The notes beneath the pieces were generated by a model. It was not told the origin of the DNA and did no database searches. It saw nothing but the letters and a program-made list of their open reading frames with translations. 64,000 bases of DNA from Candidatus Nealsonbacteria bacterium. Lineage in GTDB: Bacteria; Patescibacteriota; Minisyncoccia; Minisyncoccales; JANBVM01. Positions 8,491 to 63,258 of the stretch are shown here, in pieces. The DNA lies in the NCBI GenBank assembly GCA_047456295.1, contig CP179887.1:175159-239158 (forward strand). Direction: 5' to 3'. The number at the start of each line of letters is the position of its first letter. The first letter of the stretch is position 1. The position numbers and the translations under genes are program-made.

Positions 8491-9890
8491 AGCGCATTTT
8501 AAGCTCTGAGGCAACAAAATATCTTGGAAAAAAGATTAAAGTTTGCGGTTGGGTCCATAGCATAAGGTCTCACGGCAAAATCATGTTCATTGACCTCCGA
8601 GATAAAGGAGGGCTTTTACAATTGGTCTTTACTCCAAAGAATAAAGATGTTTATAAAACAATTCAAACATTGGGTTCAGAATGGGTGATTGAAGTTGAAG
8701 GAAAGATTCAAAAAAGACCTAAACAAATGATAAATCCCAAGATTGAAACAGGAAAAATAGAACTCTTGCCAGAAAAAGTGAAGATTCTTTCTCAGGCAAA
8801 AACCCTGCCTTTTCCTGTTGATACTCCAGGTTATGAAATAAGTGAAGAAAAAAGGTTGAAATATCGCTATCTGGATTTGAGAAGAAAGAGAATAAGGACA
8901 AATCTGGAGGTGCGTCAGAAAGTCATTAAATTCATGAGGGATTTCCTGCAAAAACAAGGTTTTTTAGAAGTAGAAACCCCTATCTTAACCAAATCCACTC
9001 CTGAAGGGGCTAGAGATTTTTTGGTTCCTGCAAGATTGCATCCTGGAAGGTTTTATGCTCTTCCCCAAAGTCCTCAGCAATACAAACAGCTCTTAATGGT
9101 TTCTGGTATTGAAAAGTATTTCCAGATTGCCAGATGTTTTCGAGACGAGGATCCCAGGGGTGATCGTCAGGCAGAATTTACCCAGTTAGACATTGAAATG
9201 TCTTTTGCTGAACAAGAAGAAATCTTAAGTTTGATAGAGGAACTTTATACTTCAATGGTTAAAAAACTATTTCCTGAAAAGAGAATCCTAAAGACTCCTT
9301 TCCCCAGAATCACATATAAAAAAGCTATGGAAAAATATGATAGTGATAAGCCTGATTTAAGGAGAAATAAAAAAGATGTCAATGAGCTGGCTTTTGCTTT
9401 TGTTGTTGATTTTCCTCTCTTTGAATGGAAGGAATCAGAGAAAAGATTTGATGCTGTGCATCATCCTTTTACCCGTCCAAAAGAAGAGGATATTAAAAAA
9501 ATAAAGAAAAACCCTGACAAAATCCTGGCCCATCAGTATGATTTTGTTTTAAACGGCTATGAAATCGGGGGAGGAAGCTTGAGGATTTATAATCCAAAGA
9601 TGCTGGAAGCAATCTTTGAGATAATGGGACATAAAAAACAAGAAATAAGAAAAAGGTTTGGTCATTTGTTGGAAGCATTTGAATACGGGGTTCCTCCCCA
9701 TGGTGGAATTGCTTCGGGAATTGACAGGTTTTTAGCAATCATTCAGGGTGAGCCTAATATTAGAGAAGTGATTGCTTTTCCCAAGACCGGAGAAAATAGA
9801 AGCCTGATGATGGATGCTCCGGCTGAAGTTGAGAAAAAACAATTAAAAGAATTACATATTAAGATTGAAAAAACCAGAAAAAAACATTAA
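8487..9890 (+). CDS. aspS: aspartate--tRNA ligase, bacterial type but lacking the GAD insertion domain
   Basis: OB-fold N-terminus and class II motifs (FYALPQSPQQYKQLLM, FRDEDPRGDRQAEFTQLD). SDKPDLR is followed after about 15 aa by VVDFPLFEW, where bacterial AspRS carries an insertion of about 120 aa. Confidence 0.9.
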   Translation: MKRILSSEATKYLGKKIKVCGWVHSIRSHGKIMFIDLRDKGGLLQLVFTPKNKDVYKTIQTLGSEWVIEVEGKIQKRPKQMINPKIETGKIELLPEKVKILSQAKTLPFPVDTPGYEISEEKRLKYRYLDLRRKRIRTNLEVRQKVIKFMRDFLQKQGFLEVETPILTKSTPEGARDFLVPARLHPGRFYALPQSPQQYKQLLMVSGIEKYFQIARCFRDEDPRGDRQAEFTQLDIEMSFAEQEEILSLIEELYTSMVKKLFPEKRILKTPFPRITYKKAMEKYDSDKPDLRRNKKDVNELAFAFVVDFPLFEWKESEKRFDAVHHPFTRPKEEDIKKIKKNPDKILAHQYDFVLNGYEIGGGSLRIYNPKMLEAIFEIMGHKKQEIRKRFGHLLEAFEYGVPPHGGIASGIDRFLAIIQGEPNIREVIAFPKTGENRSLMMDAPAEVEKKQLKELHIKIEKTRKKH

Positions 9891-9924
9891 ATTAAAGATT
9901 ATTTAAGGCTGACTTTTAGGTTTA

Positions 9925-10845
9925 ATGAGTAAAAATTTAAATTTCTTTCTGACGGCCCTGGTGGCAACCATATTCTTAGGATGGGGGATAAATGTTTCCC
10001 AGGAAAACTTGGAGGATTTTTTTTATGCTCAAATATCCCAGCCTTTTGTGGAAATTAGTTTGGTTAAAATACCCCCTAAATCCCAAAAACCAAAACCTGA
10101 GCTTCAGCTAGAATCAGCATTGTCAGTTAAAATTAATAAGTTTGGTAAGCAAAGGGTTGTTTTTAGAAAAGATGCTGTAAGGTCCCTGCCCATTGCCTCT
10201 TTAACAAAGTTGATGACAGGCCTCATTATTCTTGAAAACACGCCCCAGGATGATTTTAATTTCTCCAGAGCAATAACCATATCAAAAGAGGCAGCTAACC
10301 AAAATGACGTGCCTGTTTATGGTAATCTAAAACAAGGAGAGGTTTTTACAGTAAAAAAACTTTTAAGACTGATGCTTGCTTATTCAAGCAATGATGCAGC
10401 TTTTGCCCTTTCTGATATTGTGGATAATAAGGGTTTTATTGAAAGAATGAATCAAAAGGCAAAAGATTTAGGGCTTGAAAATACCTATTTTGTAAATTCC
10501 AGCGGTCTGGACCCTCAAGATCCAAAACAAATACCAAACTATTCCACCAGCCAGGACTTAATGACCCTTGCCAAATATATTCTTGAAAAATACCCTTTAA
10601 TATTTGAACTTTCTTTAAGCCAGGAACCTTATCCAACCCAAAACGGACTTTCTGATTTATCTCTGCCAGAAGAGCAACGATTTATAGGGGGGAAAACAGG
10701 TTATACTGAAAAAGCAGGAGGATGCATGCTCTCAATCATACAAGATGAAGAACAAAATCATTTCATTAGTGTGATTCTGGGCACTGATTCACCAATAGAC
10801 CGGGTTAAAGAAATGCAAAAATTAATAGACTGGTTAAATACATAA
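9925..10845 (+). CDS. serine-type D-Ala-D-Ala carboxypeptidase (S11, PBP5/6-like)
   Basis: N-terminal TM/signal segment; SxxK (ASLTK), SxN (SSND) and KTG (KTGYT) motifs. Confidence 0.85.
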   Translation: MSKNLNFFLTALVATIFLGWGINVSQENLEDFFYAQISQPFVEISLVKIPPKSQKPKPELQLESALSVKINKFGKQRVVFRKDAVRSLPIASLTKLMTGLIILENTPQDDFNFSRAITISKEAANQNDVPVYGNLKQGEVFTVKKLLRLMLAYSSNDAAFALSDIVDNKGFIERMNQKAKDLGLENTYFVNSSGLDPQDPKQIPNYSTSQDLMTLAKYILEKYPLIFELSLSQEPYPTQNGLSDLSLPEEQRFIGGKTGYTEKAGGCMLSIIQDEEQNHFISVILGTDSPIDRVKEMQKLIDWLNT

Positions 10846-53372: not shown

Positions 53373-54212
53373 TCATTCTTCTTTCTCTATATATTTAAAG
53401 GGAGCTAAATTCCCGAATCTCAAGTCAATATATTCCAAATCTTTTCTTTTATCTAAAGGAATGTATTTTTCCAAAACTGCTTTCAGTTTTGTGAACTGCC
53501 AATACAGGTCTTTTTTAGGGTTAAAATAAATCTCAAAACCATCTAAAACCCTGACATTTATTCTTTCCTCAGAAACAATTAAAATATCTCCAATTAAAAT
53601 ATCTGAATTTTCTAATTCTGAGAAAATCTCCAGAATCTTGGAAACTAAATCTGTTTCTATTACTTTTTCCCCTATTGCTGATTTATTTTCTGAATCAGGG
53701 CTTTTAATTTTCGGCAGCTGGAAATTATTATCCAAAACCATCTCAAAAACTATTCCTTCCCTGTCCAATAAAAAACATTCCTCTCTGATTAACCGGATTT
53801 CTTCATTATCAGATTCATAATCTTTACAAAAGGTTGCTACCTCAACCCTCTCTTCAACAATACAATCTATTGTATCGGGAAGGACTTGCTTTAATCTTAC
53901 CTTTCCCACCTTGGAAAACTCATTTAAAATATCTTCTTTTGTTTTATTTAAATCTGCCAAAAAGATATTCTTCTCAAGAAAAAACAATTTTTTTTCTGCC
54001 AGTTCTCTTTCAATAACCTTGACAATCTCTTGTTTTGAAACCTTTTCATTACCAGAAATTATTATGTTTTCAACCTGAAAAAAACTTGAAAAAACCAATA
54101 AATACACAACTAAAACAGAAAAAACAAAAACAAAAAAAGTTGACCAGAAATACTTTTTTTTGAAAAATGGTTGTTTCTTCTTAATTCTGTGGGGTTTGCG
54201 GTATTTTCTCAT
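53373..54212 (-). CDS. ftsQ: FtsQ-like cell-division protein (TM anchor plus POTRA)
   Basis: N-terminal TM segment FWSTFFVFVFSVLVVYLLVF, then FQVENIIISGNEKVSKQEIVKVI (POTRA_1). Confidence 0.7.
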   Translation of the reverse strand: MRKYRKPHRIKKKQPFFKKKYFWSTFFVFVFSVLVVYLLVFSSFFQVENIIISGNEKVSKQEIVKVIERELAEKKLFFLEKNIFLADLNKTKEDILNEFSKVGKVRLKQVLPDTIDCIVEERVEVATFCKDYESDNEEIRLIREECFLLDREGIVFEMVLDNNFQLPKIKSPDSENKSAIGEKVIETDLVSKILEIFSELENSDILIGDILIVSEERINVRVLDGFEIYFNPKKDLYWQFTKLKAVLEKYIPLDKRKDLEYIDLRFGNLAPFKYIEKEE

Positions 54213-54225
54213 GATAAATCAAAAT

Positions 54226-54248
54226 ACATATTGTATTATACAATATGT
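54226..54248. promoter_or_regulatory. perfect palindrome upstream of the ftsQ-like gene
   Basis: ACATATTGTA-TTA-TACAATATGT lies 14 nt upstream of the start codon. CAATATGT recurs at about 54294. Confidence 0.35.
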
Positions 54249-54338
54249 GTTGAGAATTAGACAAAGCGTGTCATAAGGCTCTAACAATATGTCTTGTTGG
54301 ACGCTATAAGGGCCGACTCAGAACATTTAACCAATTTA

Positions 54339-54367
54339 AAAGCCGAGTAGGTTTTACTCGGTTTTTT
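54339..54367. terminator. bidirectional rho-independent terminator ending the minus-strand nuclease operon
   Basis: AAAAGCCGAGTA-GGTTT-TACTCGGTTTTTT lies 21 nt beyond the stop of the SbcC-like gene. Confidence 0.8.
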
Positions 54368-54387: not shown

Positions 54388-56814
54388 TTAGGTAATCTCT
54401 GCTATTTCCAGAATCTTATCAGCAAACTTGTCGCAATAATCATGACAAGTGAATATTAATACCTGATGGTTTTTCGATAATTTCTTGCAGAGTTCTAAAG
54501 TTTTCATTCGTCTATCTTTATCAAAATGAGTAAATGGATCATCCATAAAGATTGGTGGATTTTTGTTGGGAACAAGAATCTCCGTCAAGGCAAATCTTGC
54601 AGCTAAATAAAGCTGATCAATGGTTCCACTCGAAAGTTCCTGTGAAGAGCTACTGACATCTATCCAATCATCTTTCTTATCGGACCATAATACAATGTCT
54701 AAATTTTCTCCAAGTTTTATTTTACTGTACTTTCCAGCTGTAATATGCGATAAGCTTTTTCCAATTTTTTGACTCAATGTTTTTGAAATATCTTTAATAG
54801 TTTGAACTCTGGCTTTCGATATCATATCCATAACTATATCATTAATCCCGGTCTTTCTGTTTAATTTATAGATTTCTTTTTCTTTAAAGGTAACTTTTTC
54901 TTCGAGTTCCGCAACATCTTCAACTCCTATTCTTTTATTTTCCTTAATAACCATCTCTGAAAAACTTTTTTTTGCTTCTAAATTCGGGGTGGCCTCTTTA
55001 AGGTTTTTGAGCTCCCCTTCTTTTCTTATAAATTTTTCAGATGTACACTTAAACATCTCTAATTCATCTAACTCAGCTTTACAAATTGCTAGCTCCTTAA
55101 CAACTTTCTCCTGTTCTTTTTTCAAATCGTCTTCTTTTTTTAACTCTTTTAACGCACCTAAACTTTCATTTGTCGATCCTTTTAATTCTTCACGCTTTTT
55201 TTCTAATCTTTCTACTTCTTTTTCCAAAACTTTTATTTCTTTATCCGTAAGTGAATAATTTTTTAATTTAGCTAATTCTTTGTTTAACAACTTTATCTCT
55301 TCACTATATTTCTTTCGCTCAGTCTTTATTTTTTCTAATGTCCCGTCACCTAAAATCGTTTTGTATTCTATACTTTTTTTACTTTTTGATTCTTCCAATC
55401 TTCGAAGTTCATTCCAAGCATTTTTAAGATATTTAACGTTCGCAACTTCATATCTTTTGAATAAAGATTTTAGAACGCTTTTTTTCCGACGAAGCTCTTC
55501 AAATAATTTTTGAATCTCTTCCTTTTTATTTGAAATATCAATATTGACTAAATCTTTAACTCTGAGATTTATAAGTGATTTCCCAGATATTTTCAGCTTG
55601 TTTTTAGCTTTTAATTCCTGGGTTTTTTTAGGGAGATTATCAATTTTAAAAGAAAGTTTCAATTTTTTGTTTGGGACTAAGGAGACTACTATTCCTTGTG
55701 ACGAAAGCGCTTTTTCAAAATCCTCTATTTCTTTCGGTAACGAGAGAGCGTTATTATAATCTTTCTCATCAATTTGTTTTTTTTGAGAAATTTTCGTTTC
55801 AATATTTACCATCTCTTCTTTTAAAAGATCGATTTTCTTAATATCTTCTAATAATTTCTTTTCGTCTTTTACGTAACTATTCTTTTTGTCAATAATGTCA
55901 AGGAAAGATTTGCCTTTATCAAGATTTTCTTTTTTAATCTTCAGTTTTTCTTCAATTTTATTCAACTCTTTAGAGTCTCTACTAAGTTTTTCTTTGGCTG
56001 TCTTTCCCCTTTTTTTTATTTTTGCTAGTTCATTATATTTACTCGATAACTCATCAAAGTGTTTTTTACTATTAATATATTTCTTTGCATTTTCTATAGC
56101 TTTTGTTTTAATTTTAATATTTTCTTTCAGTTTCGGTAATTTCTCCGAAATTCGAGATAGTTCAATTCTATGTTCCTCTAGTTCGCCGACTTTGTTTTTT
56201 AACTCCCTGAGTTGAATACCTAATTTATGTAATTCATCTTCTGATTTTTTGATCGGCCCAAGATTTTTAAGCCCTCCCTTCTTTAATCCTCTATTTTCTT
56301 TTTCTAATAGCTTTAAAAGTTCACTTAGATCAACGCCACCACCTGAAATCTTTTCATCTAAAAGCGTTTTAATTTCGGGTAGTCCGCTATCAATCTTCTT
56401 GATTTCATCCTGAGTTATACATATTGTTGATATAAAACACTTCTCGGAAGGTAATCCTATTAACTCAATAAGTTTTTCTTGAATCCTTTTTTTATCCTTT
56501 AAAGTTAATCCCCTCGGTAGAGTTAAAATATTCTTTTTGTCTTCATAATCTCTTGTAAGAATGAAAGTTTCTTTCCCGCGTTGAAGATGTAACTCTATCA
56601 GAAATAATTTATCTGATTTCCATCTTTTTTGTACTTTAACGTCTGAACTAGTAGTGGTGGCGTCTCCAAAAATAGAAAGCTTTATCGCGCTCAATAGTGA
56701 TGACTTTCCTGATTCGTTTGGTCCTTTTAATACAATAAGGCCCTGAGGAAGATCCTGATCAAAGGTTTTTAAGTTGCGGAAGTCTTTAATCTTTATTTTT
56801 TTGATAATCATCAA
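54388..56814 (-). CDS. sbcC: SMC/Rad50-like coiled-coil ABC ATPase (SbcC / YhaN-like), no CxxC zinc hook seen
   Basis: Walker A GPNESGKSS, about 550 aa of K/E-rich coiled coil, signature LSSGTIDQLYLAARFAL, Walker B PPIFMDDPF. Confidence 0.85.
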   Translation of the reverse strand: MMIIKKIKIKDFRNLKTFDQDLPQGLIVLKGPNESGKSSLLSAIKLSIFGDATTTSSDVKVQKRWKSDKLFLIELHLQRGKETFILTRDYEDKKNILTLPRGLTLKDKKRIQEKLIELIGLPSEKCFISTICITQDEIKKIDSGLPEIKTLLDEKISGGGVDLSELLKLLEKENRGLKKGGLKNLGPIKKSEDELHKLGIQLRELKNKVGELEEHRIELSRISEKLPKLKENIKIKTKAIENAKKYINSKKHFDELSSKYNELAKIKKRGKTAKEKLSRDSKELNKIEEKLKIKKENLDKGKSFLDIIDKKNSYVKDEKKLLEDIKKIDLLKEEMVNIETKISQKKQIDEKDYNNALSLPKEIEDFEKALSSQGIVVSLVPNKKLKLSFKIDNLPKKTQELKAKNKLKISGKSLINLRVKDLVNIDISNKKEEIQKLFEELRRKKSVLKSLFKRYEVANVKYLKNAWNELRRLEESKSKKSIEYKTILGDGTLEKIKTERKKYSEEIKLLNKELAKLKNYSLTDKEIKVLEKEVERLEKKREELKGSTNESLGALKELKKEDDLKKEQEKVVKELAICKAELDELEMFKCTSEKFIRKEGELKNLKEATPNLEAKKSFSEMVIKENKRIGVEDVAELEEKVTFKEKEIYKLNRKTGINDIVMDMISKARVQTIKDISKTLSQKIGKSLSHITAGKYSKIKLGENLDIVLWSDKKDDWIDVSSSSQELSSGTIDQLYLAARFALTEILVPNKNPPIFMDDPFTHFDKDRRMKTLELCKKLSKNHQVLIFTCHDYCDKFADKILEIAEIT

Positions 56815-56815
56815 T

Positions 56816-57940
56816 TTAAAGCTTTAATTTTCCTAGAAGCAGTGCAACTCCCTTTCTGAGCGCTTCGTCATATATTCCTTTTCTTTCTTCTGGTAACTTT
56901 TTAATTTCTTCTTTTAAAATTTGAATAAAATTATAGCCGATTGTTTTTGCAGGAAAAAGGTTATCCACGTTTGTTGGAATATCAGAATGTACTTTTGAAG
57001 AGTCTATTCTTAAAAAAGCGAAATTATTATTTAGTTCATTCTCTAGTTCAAAAAAATCAATAGAGTTATCCAAGCCTACTAAACCCTTTAAATGAAATCT
57101 TACTATTTTATCCTTTCCTTGATAATCAAGAATTTTCTTTTTAAGACTATCGGCCGTAGGATAGACTGAAGTATCAATATTAATTTCTTTCCAATCATAT
57201 TTACCTGTCTTTATTTTTTCTATGTTACAGATTTTTTTATCTAATTCTATTAGTAGTACAAAACCAGATTTATCTCTGTCTTCAAATTGTAATGTTTCAG
57301 GTGAGCCTGAATACCACGCTTTTGTTTTGCCAAGGGAATACTCGGCGCATTTATGCCAATGTCCTAAAGCTATATAATCCATTCCGCTATTCTCAATCTC
57401 CTTTTGATTAATTATATACTCATTCGGATTATACTTCCCTTCTATCTTTATGGAACCGTGAGCTAAAGCAATATTTAGAGCCGTTTCTTTACTTGGCTTT
57501 AATCCTTTTAACGGTGACTCTGAACCAAAATTTGTTATATTTGCTTTACTATGAACAGCAATATCTAACTCTTTAAAAATCTTTGTGGTTGGTTTTGGAT
57601 CTTTTAAAATAGAAACATTTCCTAAGTTATGAATAAATTCATCACGCCTATATACCGAACTTGAATCATAACAATCATGGGTTCCCGGAATTATACAAAC
57701 AGTGATTCCTTTTAATTTTTTAAAATTGTCTATAACGTATCCCAGTAAATCTGAAGAAACCTTGTTTGAATCAAATAAATCTCCAGATATTAATAATAAG
57801 TCTATTTCTTTCTCTATTGCTAACTCAATTATGTTCGAGAATGTATTTTTAACTGTTTCTCGAAGCTCTTTTCCAAACTCAGAAAGAAATTTAAATTCTC
57901 TTCCTAGATGTAAATCTGCAGTATGTAAGATCTTAATCAT
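56816..57940 (-). CDS. sbcD: Mre11/SbcD-like metallophosphoesterase nuclease
   Basis: ILHTADLHLG, SGDLFD, GTHD and GHWH calcineurin-like motifs. Its stop lies 1 nt before the ATPase start. Confidence 0.85.
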   Translation of the reverse strand: MIKILHTADLHLGREFKFLSEFGKELRETVKNTFSNIIELAIEKEIDLLLISGDLFDSNKVSSDLLGYVIDNFKKLKGITVCIIPGTHDCYDSSSVYRRDEFIHNLGNVSILKDPKPTTKIFKELDIAVHSKANITNFGSESPLKGLKPSKETALNIALAHGSIKIEGKYNPNEYIINQKEIENSGMDYIALGHWHKCAEYSLGKTKAWYSGSPETLQFEDRDKSGFVLLIELDKKICNIEKIKTGKYDWKEINIDTSVYPTADSLKKKILDYQGKDKIVRFHLKGLVGLDNSIDFFELENELNNNFAFLRIDSSKVHSDIPTNVDNLFPAKTIGYNFIQILKEEIKKLPEERKGIYDEALRKGVALLLGKLKL

Positions 57941-58020
57941 AGATTTTTATTCTCATTTTAATTTTAAAATTCATATTTTTGCTTTCTATTTTTTAAAAAA
58001 TTTTAGATTGCTGTATTTGT

Positions 58021-58836
58021 TCATTTTTTTGATTTTTTTAATTTTCCGCCTATAATTTCAAAAGCTTTTTTAATTTTCTTAAGGGTTTCCGAGTAATCTT
58101 CATTCCCTGTTTCAATTCGAAAGGGCTCGTAGTCAATGATACGAGAGTTTTCATCCATAATATGAACACCAATATCAAAAGATGTCCTATGGGGAGCTAA
58201 CCAAGAAAACTGACGACCTCTATATTTGAAGCCCACATAACTTTGAGTCGCATATTCTTCAATGTTCTCCCCAATATTTTTAATCTCTTTTCTAATTTTC
58301 TCAAAGAGTGGTCTAAGGGGCTTTTTCATTACATAGTTTTTCAACTCTTCAATTGTTTTTGGTCTCGAGGGAGCTTTTTCGACCTCAGGTAAAGAAACCT
58401 GATGGTAACATAGTCCCTGTTTCCCTTCATTTGTAGAAAGCACTGTGTGCTCATAAAGTTCTATATCTGGAACTACAAGAGTGCTAAGTCTCCTAATATC
58501 ATCAGAGAAATTCTCTGCAATCAATACTATGCGTGGATGCTCATTGGGGTCAATTTTCTTATCAGGAAACATCCCTGCAATAATATATCTTTCTTGATCT
58601 ATTGTATTGTAATACCTTAGTGCTTGAAATAAAATATTTTCATCTTCCTGGAGTTTAACTTCAATAATCACAAGACGACCACCACTATCTACGCATAAAA
58701 AATCAGGTATCCCTTTCAGGCTGTCAAATTCGTATTTAATAAGAATCAACCCCTCTTCAAGAGCGTCAAGTTCTTTTTCTATTAAGCTGTGTAGTTCTTT
58801 TTCGTCTTTTATCTTAATTTTCTTTAGTATCGCCAT
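58021..58836 (-). CDS. PD-(D/E)xK nuclease, NucS/DUF91 (Shedu-like) N-terminal domain plus uncharacterised C-terminal domain
   Basis: LEEGLILIKYEFDSLKGIPDFLCVDSGGRLVIIEVKLQ...FQALRYY (D...ExK...Q..Y). Confidence 0.7.
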   Translation of the reverse strand: MAILKKIKIKDEKELHSLIEKELDALEEGLILIKYEFDSLKGIPDFLCVDSGGRLVIIEVKLQEDENILFQALRYYNTIDQERYIIAGMFPDKKIDPNEHPRIVLIAENFSDDIRRLSTLVVPDIELYEHTVLSTNEGKQGLCYHQVSLPEVEKAPSRPKTIEELKNYVMKKPLRPLFEKIRKEIKNIGENIEEYATQSYVGFKYRGRQFSWLAPHRTSFDIGVHIMDENSRIIDYEPFRIETGNEDYSETLKKIKKAFEIIGGKLKKSKK

Positions 58837-58897
58837 ATTTTATTTCTCAATTAATTTTTCGACCTATTTCTCCAATTTCTGGTTAAATTTTGATTTT

Positions 58898-59710
58898 CTA
58901 TTTTTGTTTAGACAGTTCTTTAATAAAATTTTCAAGCAACAAAGCACTTAATGCGATTTGCCTTTTATCTAAGCGTGAAACAGTTTCATATAAAGTTAAC
59001 TTTTTCCGTTTTTTCGTTTTTTTCTGAGACACTATCCAGACAACACCATCTAAGATTGCTACTCGGAGAGCTTTCTTTCCTTTGTTTTTAATAAAAGCAA
59101 TTGTTTCTCTGAATCCTTTATGTTGAGTCCCTCCGCTTGCAGTAATGAATTTAGCCTCGCCGATTATAAAACGATCTTTTATTCTTAAAACCATATCAAG
59201 ACCTTTTTGTCCACGATAACCTAATTCTTCTTTTGCAAATTTCTTCAATGTAGCATCACCGCCATCTAATATTGCAATATTCTTGTATTTTAAAAAATTA
59301 TCTTTAGCTAAAACAGGATATCCTAGCACGGATAGCCATTTTTTAAACATCTGCCCTAATTGACGAGAAGGAGATTTAGGTCTACTTGCCCCTATAAAAA
59401 TTTCCTTTAGGCCCATGCTGAATAGTCTTTTTCCTATACGCTGAATTGTTTTTGGATTCTTATCTAATGCTTTTCGATCTTTTCTCAAGAAACCAATATA
59501 AGGATCGTCTATGGGAAACCTTTTAAGCTCCAATAAAGCCGAGATTAGATTTTTCTTATTTCTGGTCTTAAATACCTTTTTGATTCTTTCTTTTTCTTCT
59601 GGCTCTATCTTTCTCGGTAAGGTTAAATCAATAGGATATATTTTCGTTAAATTATCAAGATATTTCTCAGAACTAGCCAAAGTTATGCTCTTTTTGACCC
59701 ACTTATTCAT
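58898..59710 (-). CDS. putative type II restriction endonuclease (PD-(D/E)xK)
   Basis: 270 aa with GLDMVLRIKDRFIIGEAKF (D...EAK). One-nt overlap with the methyltransferase gene. Confidence 0.55.
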   Translation of the reverse strand: MNKWVKKSITLASSEKYLDNLTKIYPIDLTLPRKIEPEEKERIKKVFKTRNKKNLISALLELKRFPIDDPYIGFLRKDRKALDKNPKTIQRIGKRLFSMGLKEIFIGASRPKSPSRQLGQMFKKWLSVLGYPVLAKDNFLKYKNIAILDGGDATLKKFAKEELGYRGQKGLDMVLRIKDRFIIGEAKFITASGGTQHKGFRETIAFIKNKGKKALRVAILDGVVWIVSQKKTKKRKKLTLYETVSRLDKRQIALSALLLENFIKELSKQK

Positions 59711-60882
59711 TATAATAATTGTTGATTATTAACAGGATTAATTTTATTAAAATATATATAATTTATAAATTTGTAAACAAAATCAAAAGATACTCTTTTT
59801 CTGTTATTGTCTCGATAATTCGTCAGAAAGAGCGATAAATATTGGTCTCTCATTTTATTTAATTCTTGATTAAAAATATCGATAATCTTTTTTTGTTTTG
59901 CAATGGGGATTTTCTCCTTGAAAATAAGATGAATCATATGACGCGAAGATTCTTTGCTTATTAAACATTTAACGCCATATTTCCTTATATCTTCAAGAGA
60001 AATCTTGCCATTCTCCGTACCACTATCAATTGCTTTTAAGAAAATTATGTTTGACTTTATCGCATTGTAGAAATCTTCGGAAACTTTTATTGTTTTAGTA
60101 TCTTCTATGTGATTATGTGCAATTGGTATCTCTATCTGGCCTCTTTCTTCATCAACATCTTTTTCAACTAATCTATAAATCCCTAGCTCATTTTTTTGAT
60201 TCTTAATAGTATCTAAAAAATCACCGTGTATGTTCCAAGAACAATTCCTTTTTAATTTAATATTCAATATTTTATTCCCTGGATAAATACGCGTCTTAAT
60301 AGAGAATCTATCGTTTAGAGGATTTTTCTTCTTTTTATAATAGAACGCTATTACATTATTGGTGGTATCAGAAAAAACTGGATGTGTAAAATAATTCATT
60401 TCTACTATCTCAAATTTATGAAAGAATATATTTTTAATTTTTCTTGAATTTCTAGCCGATAAAAAATTTATTGGAACAATAACAATCCCCTCTTCGCTAT
60501 TAAGAATAGAGGAAAGAGAAATTTGGTATAAATCTTCAAATTCAAACTTGCTGAAATACTTTCGCTTTGTCTTTTTATTAGCTTTGTTAATGTTTAAATA
60601 AGGAGGATTAGTTAGAACAAATTTGTACTTTAATGGATTTAAGAGACTATCATTTAAAAAAACATCTTTGCCATTTATGCATCTGTTATCAATATCGTAA
60701 CCTATTACCTTTTTTGCTTTGTTGCGTCTTGCCCAATCAATTAAATCTCCTTCTCCAGCAAAAGGATCAACAATTTCTTTGCCTTCAATATATTTATCCA
60801 AATTTTTCAAAATGTAATTTGAATTTTTAGTCAAAAACTGCCCAAGTTGCTTTTTTTGTTTTATTGCTTGTTGTGATGACAT
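59710..60882 (-). CDS. N6-adenine DNA methyltransferase (gamma class, TaqI/Eco57I-like)
   Basis: LGQFLT (motif X), DPFAGEGDL (motif I), LTNPPYL (motif IV), and a C-terminal target-recognition region. Confidence 0.85.
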   Translation of the reverse strand: MSSQQAIKQKKQLGQFLTKNSNYILKNLDKYIEGKEIVDPFAGEGDLIDWARRNKAKKVIGYDIDNRCINGKDVFLNDSLLNPLKYKFVLTNPPYLNINKANKKTKRKYFSKFEFEDLYQISLSSILNSEEGIVIVPINFLSARNSRKIKNIFFHKFEIVEMNYFTHPVFSDTTNNVIAFYYKKKKNPLNDRFSIKTRIYPGNKILNIKLKRNCSWNIHGDFLDTIKNQKNELGIYRLVEKDVDEERGQIEIPIAHNHIEDTKTIKVSEDFYNAIKSNIIFLKAIDSGTENGKISLEDIRKYGVKCLISKESSRHMIHLIFKEKIPIAKQKKIIDIFNQELNKMRDQYLSLFLTNYRDNNRKRVSFDFVYKFINYIYFNKINPVNNQQLL

Positions 60883-60885
60883 ACC

Positions 60886-61158
60886 TTAAATATATTTCTG
60901 TTTTGGATTATATTTATCACGATATATTTTTTCCCATCTCTTCGCTTCTTGAGTACTACTTGTTGATTTATATCTAATAGTAGTAATGCCACGTTTAGTG
61001 TTTAATTGCTGTTTGATGCGGGTTTGTAAATTACCAGCATCTGCACTACCTACATACGGCAAATTATTCCCTCTATATAATAAATAAGCTCCTGACTGAT
61101 TGGGAATATCAGATAAGTTTTTAATTGTTGGTCTTAATTTTTTACTTAATTTTGCCAT
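60886..61158 (-). CDS. minimal GIY-YIG nuclease-domain protein
   Basis: 90 aa: GAYLLY...LPYVGSA...LQTRI...EAKRWE...KYNP. It ends 3 nt before the methyltransferase start. Paralog of 23612..23905. Confidence 0.7.
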   Translation of the reverse strand: MAKLSKKLRPTIKNLSDIPNQSGAYLLYRGNNLPYVGSADAGNLQTRIKQQLNTKRGITTIRYKSTSSTQEAKRWEKIYRDKYNPKQKYI

Positions 61159-61190
61159 AATTTGAATTCTAATTTATTTAATTAACATAT

Positions 61191-61802
61191 TTATAACTTT
61201 TTAATCATTTTACCGATCATTTGCATTTCATCAGTAAAAAGAATAATTTTATATTTAGGATTTTCCGGCTTTAAAAATTGATATGGGGGTTTGTCGTGGG
61301 AAATAAATCGCTTGACAGTAGTGCCATCAGGAGTCCGGACTAAAACAATATCTCCAGAAGAAAACTCATTTGTTTTTTTGAATAAAATCAAATCCCCGTC
61401 CTCGATACCAGCCCCTATCATTGAATCTCCAATAATTCTTGTGACGATTACATCATCAGAAATAATTTCTGTATCTTTTGATAAAGGCATCCAAGCATCA
61501 ATCTCTTCTATGGCTTCAGCAAAATCACCTGCTGAGGTAAAACCAACTATTGGCACTAAGGGTCTGACATTGATCGCTTTATAACCTTTCTTGAGAATTT
61601 TAATACCGCGAGCCAAAGCCTCACTTCTTTTAATGGTCCCTTGTTTCTTTAGTTTAGTCAAAAGGTCAATAATTGACTGATTTGAAGAAACATTTAACCT
61701 TTCTCTCATCTCCTCAAAAGTTGGTGGATAGCCAGTATCTTTTATATATTCGTAGATAATAGATAATAGTTCTTTTTGTCTTTTCGTAATATTTTTCTTC
61801 AT
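61191..61802 (-). CDS. lexA: LexA-type repressor (wHTH plus S24 autopeptidase)
   Basis: TKRQKELLSIIYEYIKDTGYPPTFEEMRERLNVSSNQSIIDLLTKL (LexA DNA-binding domain), GDSM (Ser) and VKRF (Lys). The ORF opens at 61814, but that ATG overlaps the predicted -10, so 61802 is preferred. Confidence 0.85.
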   Translation of the reverse strand: MKKNITKRQKELLSIIYEYIKDTGYPPTFEEMRERLNVSSNQSIIDLLTKLKKQGTIKRSEALARGIKILKKGYKAINVRPLVPIVGFTSAGDFAEAIEEIDAWMPLSKDTEIISDDVIVTRIIGDSMIGAGIEDGDLILFKKTNEFSSGDIVLVRTPDGTTVKRFISHDKPPYQFLKPENPKYKIILFTDEMQMIGKMIKKL

Positions 61803-61812
61803 ATCTTCTATC

Positions 61813-61842
61813 ATAATACCCGACTGTTTAGTCGGGTGTCAA
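61813..61842 (-). promoter_or_regulatory. lexA promoter with a palindromic operator in the spacer
   Basis: The minus strand reads TTGACA-CCCGACTAAACAGTCGGG-TATTAT. The palindrome ACCCGACT-N4-AGTCGGGT (61818-61837) fills the 18-nt spacer. Confidence 0.6.
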
Positions 61843-61920
61843 TGTGTTAGACTGTGGATAACTTTCTCATGTATTCACAACCTCCTTCTGGTTTTTCTTA
61901 ATTTTTCTTATCAACTGAAT

Positions 61921-63258
61921 TCAATCTAATTTTTCTTCAATTGTGTAGTTTAAATTAAGAACATTTTGAATAAAAAATGCGTGCCAATTTTTATATACTC
62001 GTATAGACACTTTATTTATTTTAGACACTTCACTATCACTAAATTTATTAATTTCGTTTTTCACAGAATCGCATAGTTTTGCGATGTCAGAAAAAAATAC
62101 ATACTTATTAGGTATTTTGATCGTATCCAAAAAACCTCGTTCAATATTCTTTGGAATTTCGTCTAAATTTCTCTTCCAATATTTTTTCTCTCTATTGCTA
62201 ACAGGATTAACCCTTGACACCATGAAATCTTTCTTCCATTTATAGAAAACTTTCACCGCATCTTCGAAAAGATAACTAGAGATAATTGCTAAATCCAAAT
62301 CAGATCGTTTATGCATTAGTTGACCATATTTTTGAGGTGCGAGCGAATAGCCCAATCTTGCGCTTCCAACGAGCACGACATTTTTAGGGTGGATTTTAAG
62401 ACTTGACGCAATGAATTCTCTTAAATTCTCATAAAATAGAGACGATTTTTGAAATGACGCAGGAATTCCTTCTGATAAAAAACCACGCAAAAGAGCTTCT
62501 TTTCCTTTTTCATCAAGCATTTTTCCTGCTTCTATGAAATTTCGCGGGGATGGATATCTGTCAATAAGCTTTTTATTTACTTCAGATCCTGGCAATAAAA
62601 AATCACGTTTTTGATCTATTTCAACTCTTGTTGTAAGTAAAGCTTTTTCCAACAAAGAAGCTATTTTGTGTCTCCTCTTTTCGAATGATTTTTTCCATTG
62701 ATCTGATTCAATGATTTGTTTTGGGTACCGAATTCTTGTAATTAGTCCTGCAGCCTGCTTAAGAGATAATGTTTCTAGATTACACTTTAAGTCATCGCAT
62801 GCTTTTTCAATTCCTTTCATCTGATAACCAAAATAAGCTATATTAAAATAAATCCCTAACACTTCTTTTTTTCTTAAAACATCTTTGACACATACGGCTA
62901 ATAATATTTCATGGATTTTTCGTCTGATAGTCCGTTCATATCTATTTGTGACAACTCTTATTAATTGTTGCTCTATGGTGCTACCTCCCTGTATTGTTCT
63001 ATGTCGTATATAATACCAAATTACTCGCAGAAGAGCCTTTAAGTCTATGCCTTTATGAGAAAAAAACCTTTCATCCTCTGCTACAACAAGTGCCCGAAAT
63101 AAAATTGGAGGAATTTTTTTCGACAACCTTTTATAATAATAGATAGCTTTTTCCCTTCTTAACCTTAAACGAAGAGCAAAAAGCTCTTCTTTTAATAACA
63201 TATATGCTACTTTATGAAGAATTCTACTCAGAACATCAATACTGTTTGTCTTTTCCAT
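61921..63258 (-). CDS. fusion protein: GT51 peptidoglycan-glycosyltransferase-like domain (no TM anchor) plus minimal nucleotidyltransferase-fold domain
   Basis: All five GT51 motifs are present: EDERFFSHKGID, GGSTIEQQ, RKIHEILLA, KKEVLGIYFN, RRHKIASLL. The C-terminal half has VVLVGSARLGYS-x14-SDLDLAII (a GS...DxD NTase signature). No hydrophobic helix in the first 60 aa. Confidence 0.7.
   Translation of the reverse strand: MEKTNSIDVLSRILHKVAYMLLKEELFALRLRLRREKAIYYYKRLSKKIPPILFRALVVAEDERFFSHKGIDLKALLRVIWYYIRHRTIQGGSTIEQQLIRVVTNRYERTIRRKIHEILLAVCVKDVLRKKEVLGIYFNIAYFGYQMKGIEKACDDLKCNLETLSLKQAAGLITRIRYPKQIIESDQWKKSFEKRRHKIASLLEKALLTTRVEIDQKRDFLLPGSEVNKKLIDRYPSPRNFIEAGKMLDEKGKEALLRGFLSEGIPASFQKSSLFYENLREFIASSLKIHPKNVVLVGSARLGYSLAPQKYGQLMHKRSDLDLAIISSYLFEDAVKVFYKWKKDFMVSRVNPVSNREKKYWKRNLDEIPKNIERGFLDTIKIPNKYVFFSDIAKLCDSVKNEINKFSDSEVSKINKVSIRVYKNWHAFFIQNVLNLNYTIEEKLD

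Follow-up and report, generated by a model that had tools for sequence, protein, structure and literature searches.

Introduction

Among the described systems, those closest to the locus reported here are type II restriction–modification (R-M) systems controlled by a C protein (PvuII, AhdI and Esp1396I), methyltransferases with an autoregulatory N-terminal helix-turn-helix (HTH) domain (M.SsoII, M.EcoRII and M.MspI), and SOS operons headed by lexA, such as lexA-dinF of Escherichia coli and the lexA-imuA-imuB-dnaE2 cassettes. To our knowledge, R-M is the main known defence of bacteria of the Candidate Phyla Radiation (CPR). A case in which the SOS repressor governs R-M expression is not known to us, and literature searches found none. 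Here, we describe a string of seven genes headed by lexA in a 64,000-nt stretch of DNA from a Candidatus Nealsonbacteria bacterium (contig CP179887.1, positions 175,159 to 239,158; hereafter, the window). In this string, lexA is followed by a mini GIY-YIG gene, the methyltransferase and endonuclease genes of a Tsp45I-type R-M system, a NucS-like nuclease gene, and a pair of genes for an Mre11/SbcD-like phosphoesterase and a Rad50/SbcC-like ATPase (SbcDC). The string is a mosaic and not one system, and we consider it fairly probable that it represents a mosaic island built on a lexA-headed R-M operon typical of the clade.

Control of R-M by LexA is not described in a general review (PMC3874152). 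In the library searched, no paper linking LexA with R-M in the CPR or in Parcubacteria was found, although the work of Sanchez-Osuna et al. (2017) on the SOS response of Patescibacteria may already note the linkage.

As in the C-protein and HTH-methyltransferase systems, a DNA-binding repressor heads the unit, or is fused to the methyltransferase, and a palindrome lies within its own promoter, through which it would set R-M expression. However, the regulator of the window is not a small Xre-type HTH_3 C protein and does not belong to that family; it is a complete LexA in which a winged HTH is combined with an S24 autoprotease domain retaining the Ala-Gly site, and is thus potentially damage-cleavable. 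Moreover, the gene order in the window is repressor, methyltransferase, endonuclease, and no activating C-box logic was evident. With the lexA-headed SOS operons, the locus shares a lexA gene that appears to be an autoregulated first cistron, with which the downstream cargo would be co-induced. It differs from them in that this cargo comprises R-M and nuclease genes, instead of polymerases or transporters, and in a presumably leaderless mRNA. With respect to the Gram-positive LexA box (CGAAC-N4-GTTCG), the operator of the window type (CCGACY-N4-RGTCGG) has one base changed per half-site.

The lexA gene and the R-M pair of the window

The lexA gene (61191-61802, minus strand) encodes a protein of 203 aa when read from its second ATG, with an N-terminal winged HTH (LexA_DNA_bind, PF01726, 1e-15) and a C-terminal S24 peptidase domain (Peptidase_S24, PF00717, 1.1e-23). 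The protein scored above the cutoff of the NCBIfam equivalog TIGR00498 (133.8 bits, cutoff 110.95) and carries the motifs TSAGDF, GDSM and VKRF, with residues A91, G92, S127 and K164 being invariant in an alignment with 27 relatives. The second ATG, at 61802, is most likely the true start, since the first one overlaps the -10 element of the promoter. The equivalent ATG is also the start of the lexA ortholog in the closest genome, the Candidatus Nealsonbacteria metagenome-assembled genome (MAG) CP179890.1 (locus L011).

The methyltransferase gene (59710-60882, minus strand) encodes a gamma-class N6-adenine DNA methyltransferase of 390 aa with a TNPPY motif, which matched Pfam Eco57I (1.3e-5; PF07669, 25.8 bits, cutoff 25.3) and the PADLOC family MTase_II. 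Its stop codon overlaps the start (ATGA) of the endonuclease gene (58898-59710, minus strand), whose product of 270 aa is a Tsp45I-family type II restriction endonuclease (PF06300, 6.2e-69, 259 of 260 profile positions covered; PADLOC REase_II, 7e-59). The window therefore holds a Tsp45I endonuclease gene adjacent to that of an NPPY methyltransferase, the combination by which a type II R-M system is recognized. Orthologs of the methyltransferase were found directly behind lexA in the related loci L016, L019, L020, L039 and L048.

Linkage of lexA with R-M genes among related loci

Related lexA loci were gathered from genomes (3), from metagenomes by a LexA alignment search (80) and by gene look-ups (4); the downstream genes were surveyed in 71 non-redundant loci and the promoters in 72. 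According to Pfam matches and clustering, an R-M or methyltransferase gene was located directly downstream of lexA, or fused to it in frame, in about 66 of the 71 loci. Two more were assigned to R-M by motif, and the remaining few were uninformative. Apart from the in-frame fusions, the spacing between lexA and the R-M gene on the same strand mostly ranged from -26 to +14 nt, and no fewer than six unrelated R-M families were placed in this way. In addition to the 26 fusions described below, 7 loci harbored an Eco57I-like methyltransferase and a Tsp45I endonuclease as in the window, 4 carried DpnI, about 10 a separate D12 or N6_N4 methyltransferase, and 19 a gene of approximately 650 codons combining HSDR_N_2 and N6_Mtase domains, often together with HsdS (all counts non-redundant). 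Six loci lay at contig ends, where the open frames behind lexA corresponded to D12, N6_N4 or HSDR_N_2+N6_Mtase proteins. A lexA-headed R-M unit is the rule in the Parcubacteria clade of the window, which supports the control of its Tsp45I-type R-M pair by LexA.

In 26 non-redundant loci, a single open reading frame (ORF) of 473-498 aa comprised LexA_DNA_bind, S24 and N6_N4_Mtase domains. The Ala-Gly site, the GDSM motif with its serine and the KR motif with its lysine were kept in all 27 distinct fusion proteins, which showed at least three junction types and included both DPPY and SPPY methyltransferases. The ORF located 4 nt past the fusion encoded nuclease candidates (DUF6996/6997, MutH-like, HNH or unassigned). 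In a protein database search, no LexA-methyltransferase fusion was present among the top 120 LexA homologs. Examples of fusions are those at L010 9995-11449 and L009 9891-11348, with 24 further loci (L026, L058, L067 and L083 among them).

These data bear on the view that lexA and its neighbours are merely juxtaposed, i.e., that a recombination hot spot in the 3' flank of lexA collects cassettes which bring their own promoters and have no coupling to LexA. In fact, the cargo after lexA differs among close relatives, with a D12 methyltransferase in L015, the Tsp45I-type pair in L016 and other inserts in L011 and L100, and from FemAB to FtsQ the cargo is variable on either side of lexA. Nevertheless, we regard this view as quite unlikely, because the methyltransferase of a fusion is inseparable from lexA expression, there is no room for an intergenic promoter where the genes overlap or lie 1-14 nt apart, and the same arrangement recurs with each of the unrelated R-M families.

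The lexA promoter and its putative operator

The lexA promoter (61813-61842, minus strand) consists of a -35 element TTGACA (61842-61837), an 18-nt spacer and a -10 element TATTAT (61818-61813); it conforms to the consensus at 11 of 12 positions and was the top match in a 10-kb scan. The spacer is filled by a palindrome (CCCGACTAAACAGTCGGG; 61819-61836), with half-sites CCCGACT and AGTCGGG separated by AAAC, which we propose as a putative LexA operator. The lexA start codon lies 10 nt past the -10 element, so that the mRNA appears to be leaderless in the window; in most of 70 related promoters, this distance was 6-11 nt, with 6-8 nt as the usual value.

The operator and both promoter elements were conserved in 70 of the 72 loci surveyed, with a layout consisting of TTGAC(A), a spacer of 17-18 nt enclosing the 16-bp palindrome CCGACY-N4-RGTCGG, and TATTAT. 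Furthermore, the half-sites change in pairs among relatives (T:A/C:G), symmetrically across both halves. Within 882 kb of loci, 74 of 75 strict operator sites were situated at lexA promoters. These results are in line with the autoregulated appearance which a first-pass annotation of the window, made from the sequence alone, had ascribed to this promoter, and suggest autoregulation of LexA via the spacer palindrome. That annotation had also called for a search for further copies of the operator; however, none was detected in the 64-kb window, even when two mismatches were allowed, and both the 61-nt and the 80-nt gaps of the string were devoid of it. Similarly, no operator was found upstream of the island genes in any of the loci examined.

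A 9-mer with the DnaA-box consensus (TTATCCACA; 61853-61861, minus strand) is located 10 nt upstream of the lexA -35 element. This 9-mer, as TTATCCACA or TGTGGATAA with at most one mismatch and in either orientation, was found 5-10 nt upstream of the -35 element in 59 of 70 related lexA promoters, and 53 copies were perfect. Its conservation suggests a second regulator site on the lexA/R-M promoter.

Arrangement of the seven genes

The seven minus-strand ORFs at 54388-61842 are separated by gaps of 32, 3, -1, 61, 80 and 1 nt, exactly as the first-pass annotation had described. Profile searches also upheld the family assigned to each product, though only weakly for the mini GIY-YIG protein. Yet the same-strand run extends beyond them, to FemAB and a transglycosylase gene on the upstream side and to FtsQ on the downstream side, and strand alone is therefore weak evidence for an operon. 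The claim that the only obvious terminator lies after the last gene also held: a bidirectional hairpin resembling an intrinsic terminator (54338-54367) was the only strong hairpin with a U-run, with a minimum free energy of -15.3 kcal/mol (z -4.1), and none of 200 shuffled sequences was equally stable. The three larger internal gaps, those of 61 and 80 nt included, were unstructured when folded (-2.6 to -3.2 kcal/mol), with no hairpin. In a promoter scan of the gaps, only hexamer matches of 9 out of 12 positions were detected, at a frequency no higher than in shuffled sequence.

The same gene order was present in the public Logan assembly L101, which was 100% identical over 12.8 kb; as this assembly may share a sample or population with the window, its agreement may not count as independent evidence against misassembly.

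Mosaic structure of the island

The comparison with L011 at the nucleotide level revealed very different degrees of identity along the locus: 97% for the SbcD-SbcC block, 92% for lexA, 90% for the R-M pair, 82% for FemAB, and only 67-70% for the GT39/FtsQ/CorA flanks. Furthermore, the positions of the GIY-YIG, NucS-like and transglycosylase genes are taken by other genes in L011, which has none of the three. This mosaic identity indicates that FemAB and FtsQ enclose a variable island, the parts of which were exchanged separately and recently. The defence island offered as an alternative in the first-pass annotation was thus borne out as regards its mosaic, exchangeable cargo, though not as regards the uncharacterised three-gene module that had been placed within it (see below). 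In L016, the lexA/R-M unit is followed by genes for a SLATT_4 effector with two transmembrane (TM) helices and for a SMODS nucleotidyltransferase (9204-10589), which points to defence-island cargo behind lexA there as well.

The mini GIY-YIG cassette

In the window, lexA and the methyltransferase gene are separated by a cassette of 299 bp (60883-61181, minus strand) carrying a gene for a 90-aa mini GIY-YIG protein (60886-61158). The protein holds the residues GAY...YVG...R...E...N, while its matches to PF01541 (18.4 bits, cutoff 22.6) and DUF7508 (21.1, cutoff 26) were below threshold. Only 19 cluster representatives among 1.84 billion belong to this rare family, and a scan of viral contigs yielded no relatives. 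One relative, P0363 (1562 aa), showed 12 matched stretches, corresponding to tandem repeats of the mini-domain.

In L016, whose LexA is 95% identical, the lexA stop codon is followed after 2 nt by the ATG of a window-type methyltransferase gene. Homology between the window and L016 comprised 61182-61885 and 58901-60882, with the 299 bp in between being unmatched. Since homology to both L016 and L011 breaks at its borders, the cassette represents an insertion at the exact lexA/methyltransferase junction. Directly past the lexA stop codon, the window still carries ATGTTAA, a remnant of the methyltransferase start, and in L015 (LexA 97% identical) a D12 methyltransferase gene lies behind the same junction sequence. 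The locus shows how a defence island can be assembled, with cassettes placed at precise junctions of an existing operon. Because the spacers flanking the GIY-YIG gene measure only 32 and 3 nt, the R-M genes would most simply be transcribed through the cassette from the lexA promoter; its own gene, with a 3-nt gap to that of the methyltransferase, would therefore ride on the same transcript.

Other genes were observed at this junction in related loci. In L011 (7032-7463), it is occupied by a gene for a predicted membrane protein of 143 aa with two predicted TM helices; by analogy, and as pure speculation, a small membrane protein after lexA may recall the cell-division inhibitors of the SOS response. 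In L100 (8618-9397), a 259-aa ORF with no Pfam match is found instead.

The NucS-like nuclease cassette

The gene at 58021-58836 forms a single-gene cassette (58007-58908, minus strand) with about 72 nt of upstream sequence of its own. It encodes a protein of 271 aa in which a NucS_C-like PD-(D/E)XK domain (residues 12-96) is followed by DUF5655, and which was matched by the PADLOC candidates PDC-S18/S11. An AlphaFold2 model (mean predicted local distance difference test score 91.5) had the nuclease domain of NucS/EndoMS as its top fold match (2e-5, approximately 120 residues), and its C-terminal domain was predicted to be YjbR/SPO1766-like; a sequence search of the PDB retrieved no match. The PD-(D/E)XK domain is therefore of the NucS type, with fold matches to 2vld and 5gke at 2e-5. 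In contrast to NucS, however, it is N-terminal and followed by DUF5655, the NucS N-terminal domain is absent, and the NCBIfam score was only 32 bits (cutoff 216); the two-domain architecture of NucS being absent, the protein was rejected as a NucS ortholog. With Shedu SduA there was only weak fold similarity (8ps5, E 0.017, rank 8), and in the absence of a DUF4263/SduA match in Pfam or PADLOC, membership in Shedu was discarded as well.

Hundreds of relatives of this gene exist at 50-90% identity, and none was recovered in a scan of viral contigs. In L001, nucleotide identity to the window was 89.5% over 58033-58908 (91% at the protein level), including the ~72 nt upstream of the start, while the shared FtsQ/GT39 flank was only 70% identical. 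The neighbours in L001 are HEPN and PD-(D/E)XK genes, without SbcDC. In L004 and L006, the gene is solitary, and in one case it stands behind a divergent gene. At the equivalent position of L011 (9589-10001), there is a spacer of 411 nt with short ORFs of 62 and 45 aa, which look like a decayed gene.

The SbcDC pair

The last two genes encode an Mre11/SbcD-like metallophosphoesterase of 374 aa (56816-57940, minus strand; Metallophos, 1.2e-14; PDB matches to Mre11/SbcD, 3e-12) and a Rad50/SbcC-like ABC ATPase of 807/808 aa with a long coiled coil (54388-56814, minus strand; AAA_15 and AAA_27; PDB matches to Rad50 with both lobes). Walker A, an SSGT signature and DDP motifs are present in the ATPase. 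The pair thus resembles SbcCD/Mre11-Rad50 in its phosphoesterase motifs, in a coiled-coil-split ABC ATPase, in the adjacency of the genes and in its best PDB matches, Rad50 and Mre11/SbcD. Unlike those complexes, it has a patchy distribution with varying neighbours, no CxxC zinc hook was found in the coiled coil of five family members (the window and four relatives), and the scores remained far below all curated cutoffs, with maxima of 89 bits for the phosphoesterase (Mre11_Sulfo, cutoff 500) and 58 for the ATPase (Rad50 PRK03918, cutoff 700).

In B. subtilis, the yhaONM genes, whose products YhaO and YhaN are also known as SbcF and SbcE, belong to the LexA regulon (PMC2731908, PMC3896406). 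The window pair shares with YhaO/YhaN the adjacency of an SbcD-family phosphoesterase and an AAA_27-type SMC-like ATPase, and a link to SOS. It differs in lacking both the exonuclease gene yhaM and a LexA box directly upstream, in the low AAA_27 similarity of its ATPase (27.8 bits) and in its horizontal mobility. As regards defence systems, no PADLOC match was obtained for the phosphoesterase, and the N-terminus of the ATPase (residues 1-138) matched LmuB (3e-17), with generic ABC/SMC matches to LmuB, GajA and PtuA. Membership in Lamassu was ruled out, given that the LmuB match was confined to the ATPase N-terminus and neither LmuA nor LmuC was present. The PADLOC-type scan proposed in the first-pass annotation therefore recovered the R-M pair and the NucS-like protein, while leaving the phosphoesterase without a match and the ATPase with generic ones only.

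The SbcD-like gene was always followed by that of an 807/808-aa ATPase, in L011/L012 and in L095 (70% aa identity), L013 (57%) and L096 (48%), the pairing being conserved in 5 contexts, and the ~55-66 nt upstream of it travel with the pair. In these loci, its neighbours are unrelated (SNase; RMMBL/NYN; GmrSD with an M78 peptidase) and include no NucS-like gene. At ~40% identity, the more distant SbcD-like relatives are phosphoesterases that stand alone, in conserved housekeeping surroundings.

Relationships among the cassettes

The first-pass annotation had suggested that the hook-less Rad50-like ATPase, the Mre11-like phosphoesterase and the NucS-like nuclease constitute an uncharacterised three-gene defence module, and had proposed to check whether the nuclease co-occurs with the pair in other genomes. 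Both the window and the identical L101 contig carry the three genes side by side on one strand, and the LmuB-like ATPase N-terminus and the PDC-S18/S11 matches of the nuclease also speak for such a module. However, no such nuclease accompanies the pair in L011/L012, its closest relative at 97% nt identity, and each partner was found without the other in several unrelated contexts: the pair in L013, L095 and L096, and the nuclease in L001, L004 and L006. Together with the phosphoesterase's lack of a PADLOC match, this makes the module extremely improbable; it was ruled out by gene neighbourhoods, and a 'three-nuclease module' is not worth pursuing as a unit.

A second proposal, also raised by the first-pass annotation, is that the seven genes together make up a single functional SOS operon in which LexA controls R-M, GIY-YIG, NucS-like and SbcDC functions together. 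The common strand, the short gaps and the lack of a terminator-like structure before 54367 speak for it, as do the B. subtilis precedent of an SbcD/ATPase pair under LexA control (PMC2731908, PMC3896406) and the order lexA, R-M, SbcDC shared by L011/L012. Yet neither the GIY-YIG gene nor the NucS-like gene was found in any of the 71 other lexA loci, L011 included, and SbcDC stands behind lexA only in L011/L012, with which the block was shared by recent transfer. Moreover, upstream sequences of their own come with both the NucS-like cassette and the SbcDC pair, the former elsewhere being solitary or behind a divergent gene, and the 61-nt and 80-nt gaps contain no operator. For these reasons, we consider a single seven-gene operon unlikely: an R-M module under LexA control fits the pattern of the clade, whereas a conserved operon of all seven genes is not sustained by the related loci.

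Proposed regulation of the unit

On the favoured reading, that of a mosaic island built on a lexA-headed R-M operon, a leaderless promoter close to the consensus and holding a LexA palindrome in its spacer would drive lexA and then the Tsp45I-type methyltransferase and endonuclease genes. Autoregulation by LexA would hold R-M at a steady basal level, and RecA-triggered self-cleavage of LexA in response to DNA damage, to self-cuts by restriction or to phage attack would increase R-M expression. The mini GIY-YIG cassette would have been inserted later, and two independently mobile units, the NucS-like/DUF5655 gene and the hook-less Mre11/Rad50-like pair with a putative role in DNA-end processing, would have been added behind the operon. 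Since their upstream sequences travel with them, both units probably have expression signals of their own; they may also receive read-through, as there is no terminator before 54367, and SOS control of all seven genes would be possible only by such read-through. LexA binding, co-transcription and damage inducibility are here deduced from sequence features.

Several observations weigh against this reading. The operator was present at no gene other than lexA in the window, and only 1 of the 75 strict sites in related loci was elsewhere; this distribution would fit a global SOS regulator as well as a controller dedicated to R-M. Where lexA is unfused, R-M could have an independent promoter within the coding sequence of lexA or of the GIY-YIG gene, and internal promoters were neither found nor excluded, because promoter-like hexamers occurred at the frequency of shuffled sequence. 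Related loci that share an R-M family are not phylogenetically independent of one another. In addition, the MAG Parcubacteria bacterium DG_74_2 (AMJ49_06605, AMJ49_05905) appears to hold two lexA paralogs, P0246 (L098/L099) and P0346 (L090), each heading a different R-M system, although this MAG may be composite. Finally, GTSAC occurs at 23 sites in the 64 kb, with an observed/expected ratio of 0.34 relative to base composition and of 0.79 under a maximal-order Markov model, where it holds rank 41 of 1024 pentamers; so mild a depletion leaves R-M activity unproven.

A broader and more tentative idea, which we rate as possible though doubtful, is that LexA acts as a damage-cleavable controller of the R-M/defence operons of the clade, with autocleavage causing derepression and the extra nucleases of the island lying on the SOS-gated transcript. 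In the fusions, which account for more than one third of the loci, autocleavage would release the S24-methyltransferase part from the DNA-binding domain and may destabilise the released part. If this is true, the balance between methylation and restriction would be tied to DNA damage or phage attack, and the lexA/R-M operon and its fusions would constitute a new regulatory design that links immunity and self-damage sensing via one cleavable repressor. There is a parallel in the WYL regulators BrxR and CapW, which are found alongside various defence systems and islands (PMC9122601, PMC9122589). In both cases, one transcription factor family heads many unrelated defence systems, possibly coupling their expression to a DNA-damage signal. 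The two differ in fold and in mechanism, with WYL ligand binding as opposed to LexA autocleavage, and LexA can in addition be fused to the methyltransferase.

Flanking genes and other observations

The gene upstream of lexA in the window (61921-63258, minus strand) encodes a 445-aa 'PBP' (penicillin-binding protein) with a transglycosylase domain only (residues 47-200). In its C-terminal half (~240 aa), for which a Pfam scan gave no match, a GS...DLDL signature resembling that of nucleotidyltransferases was noticed by eye. At this position, L011 holds an 886-aa ORF and a reverse-strand N6_N4 methyltransferase gene instead. An Rfam scan of the region from 53 to 64 kb yielded no match. Downstream of the string, approximately 100 bp covering the FtsQ promoter and start (54163-54266) were 85% identical to L016 5705-5807, which lies ~200 bp upstream of lexA in that locus; this match may be a footprint of island insertion or rearrangement.

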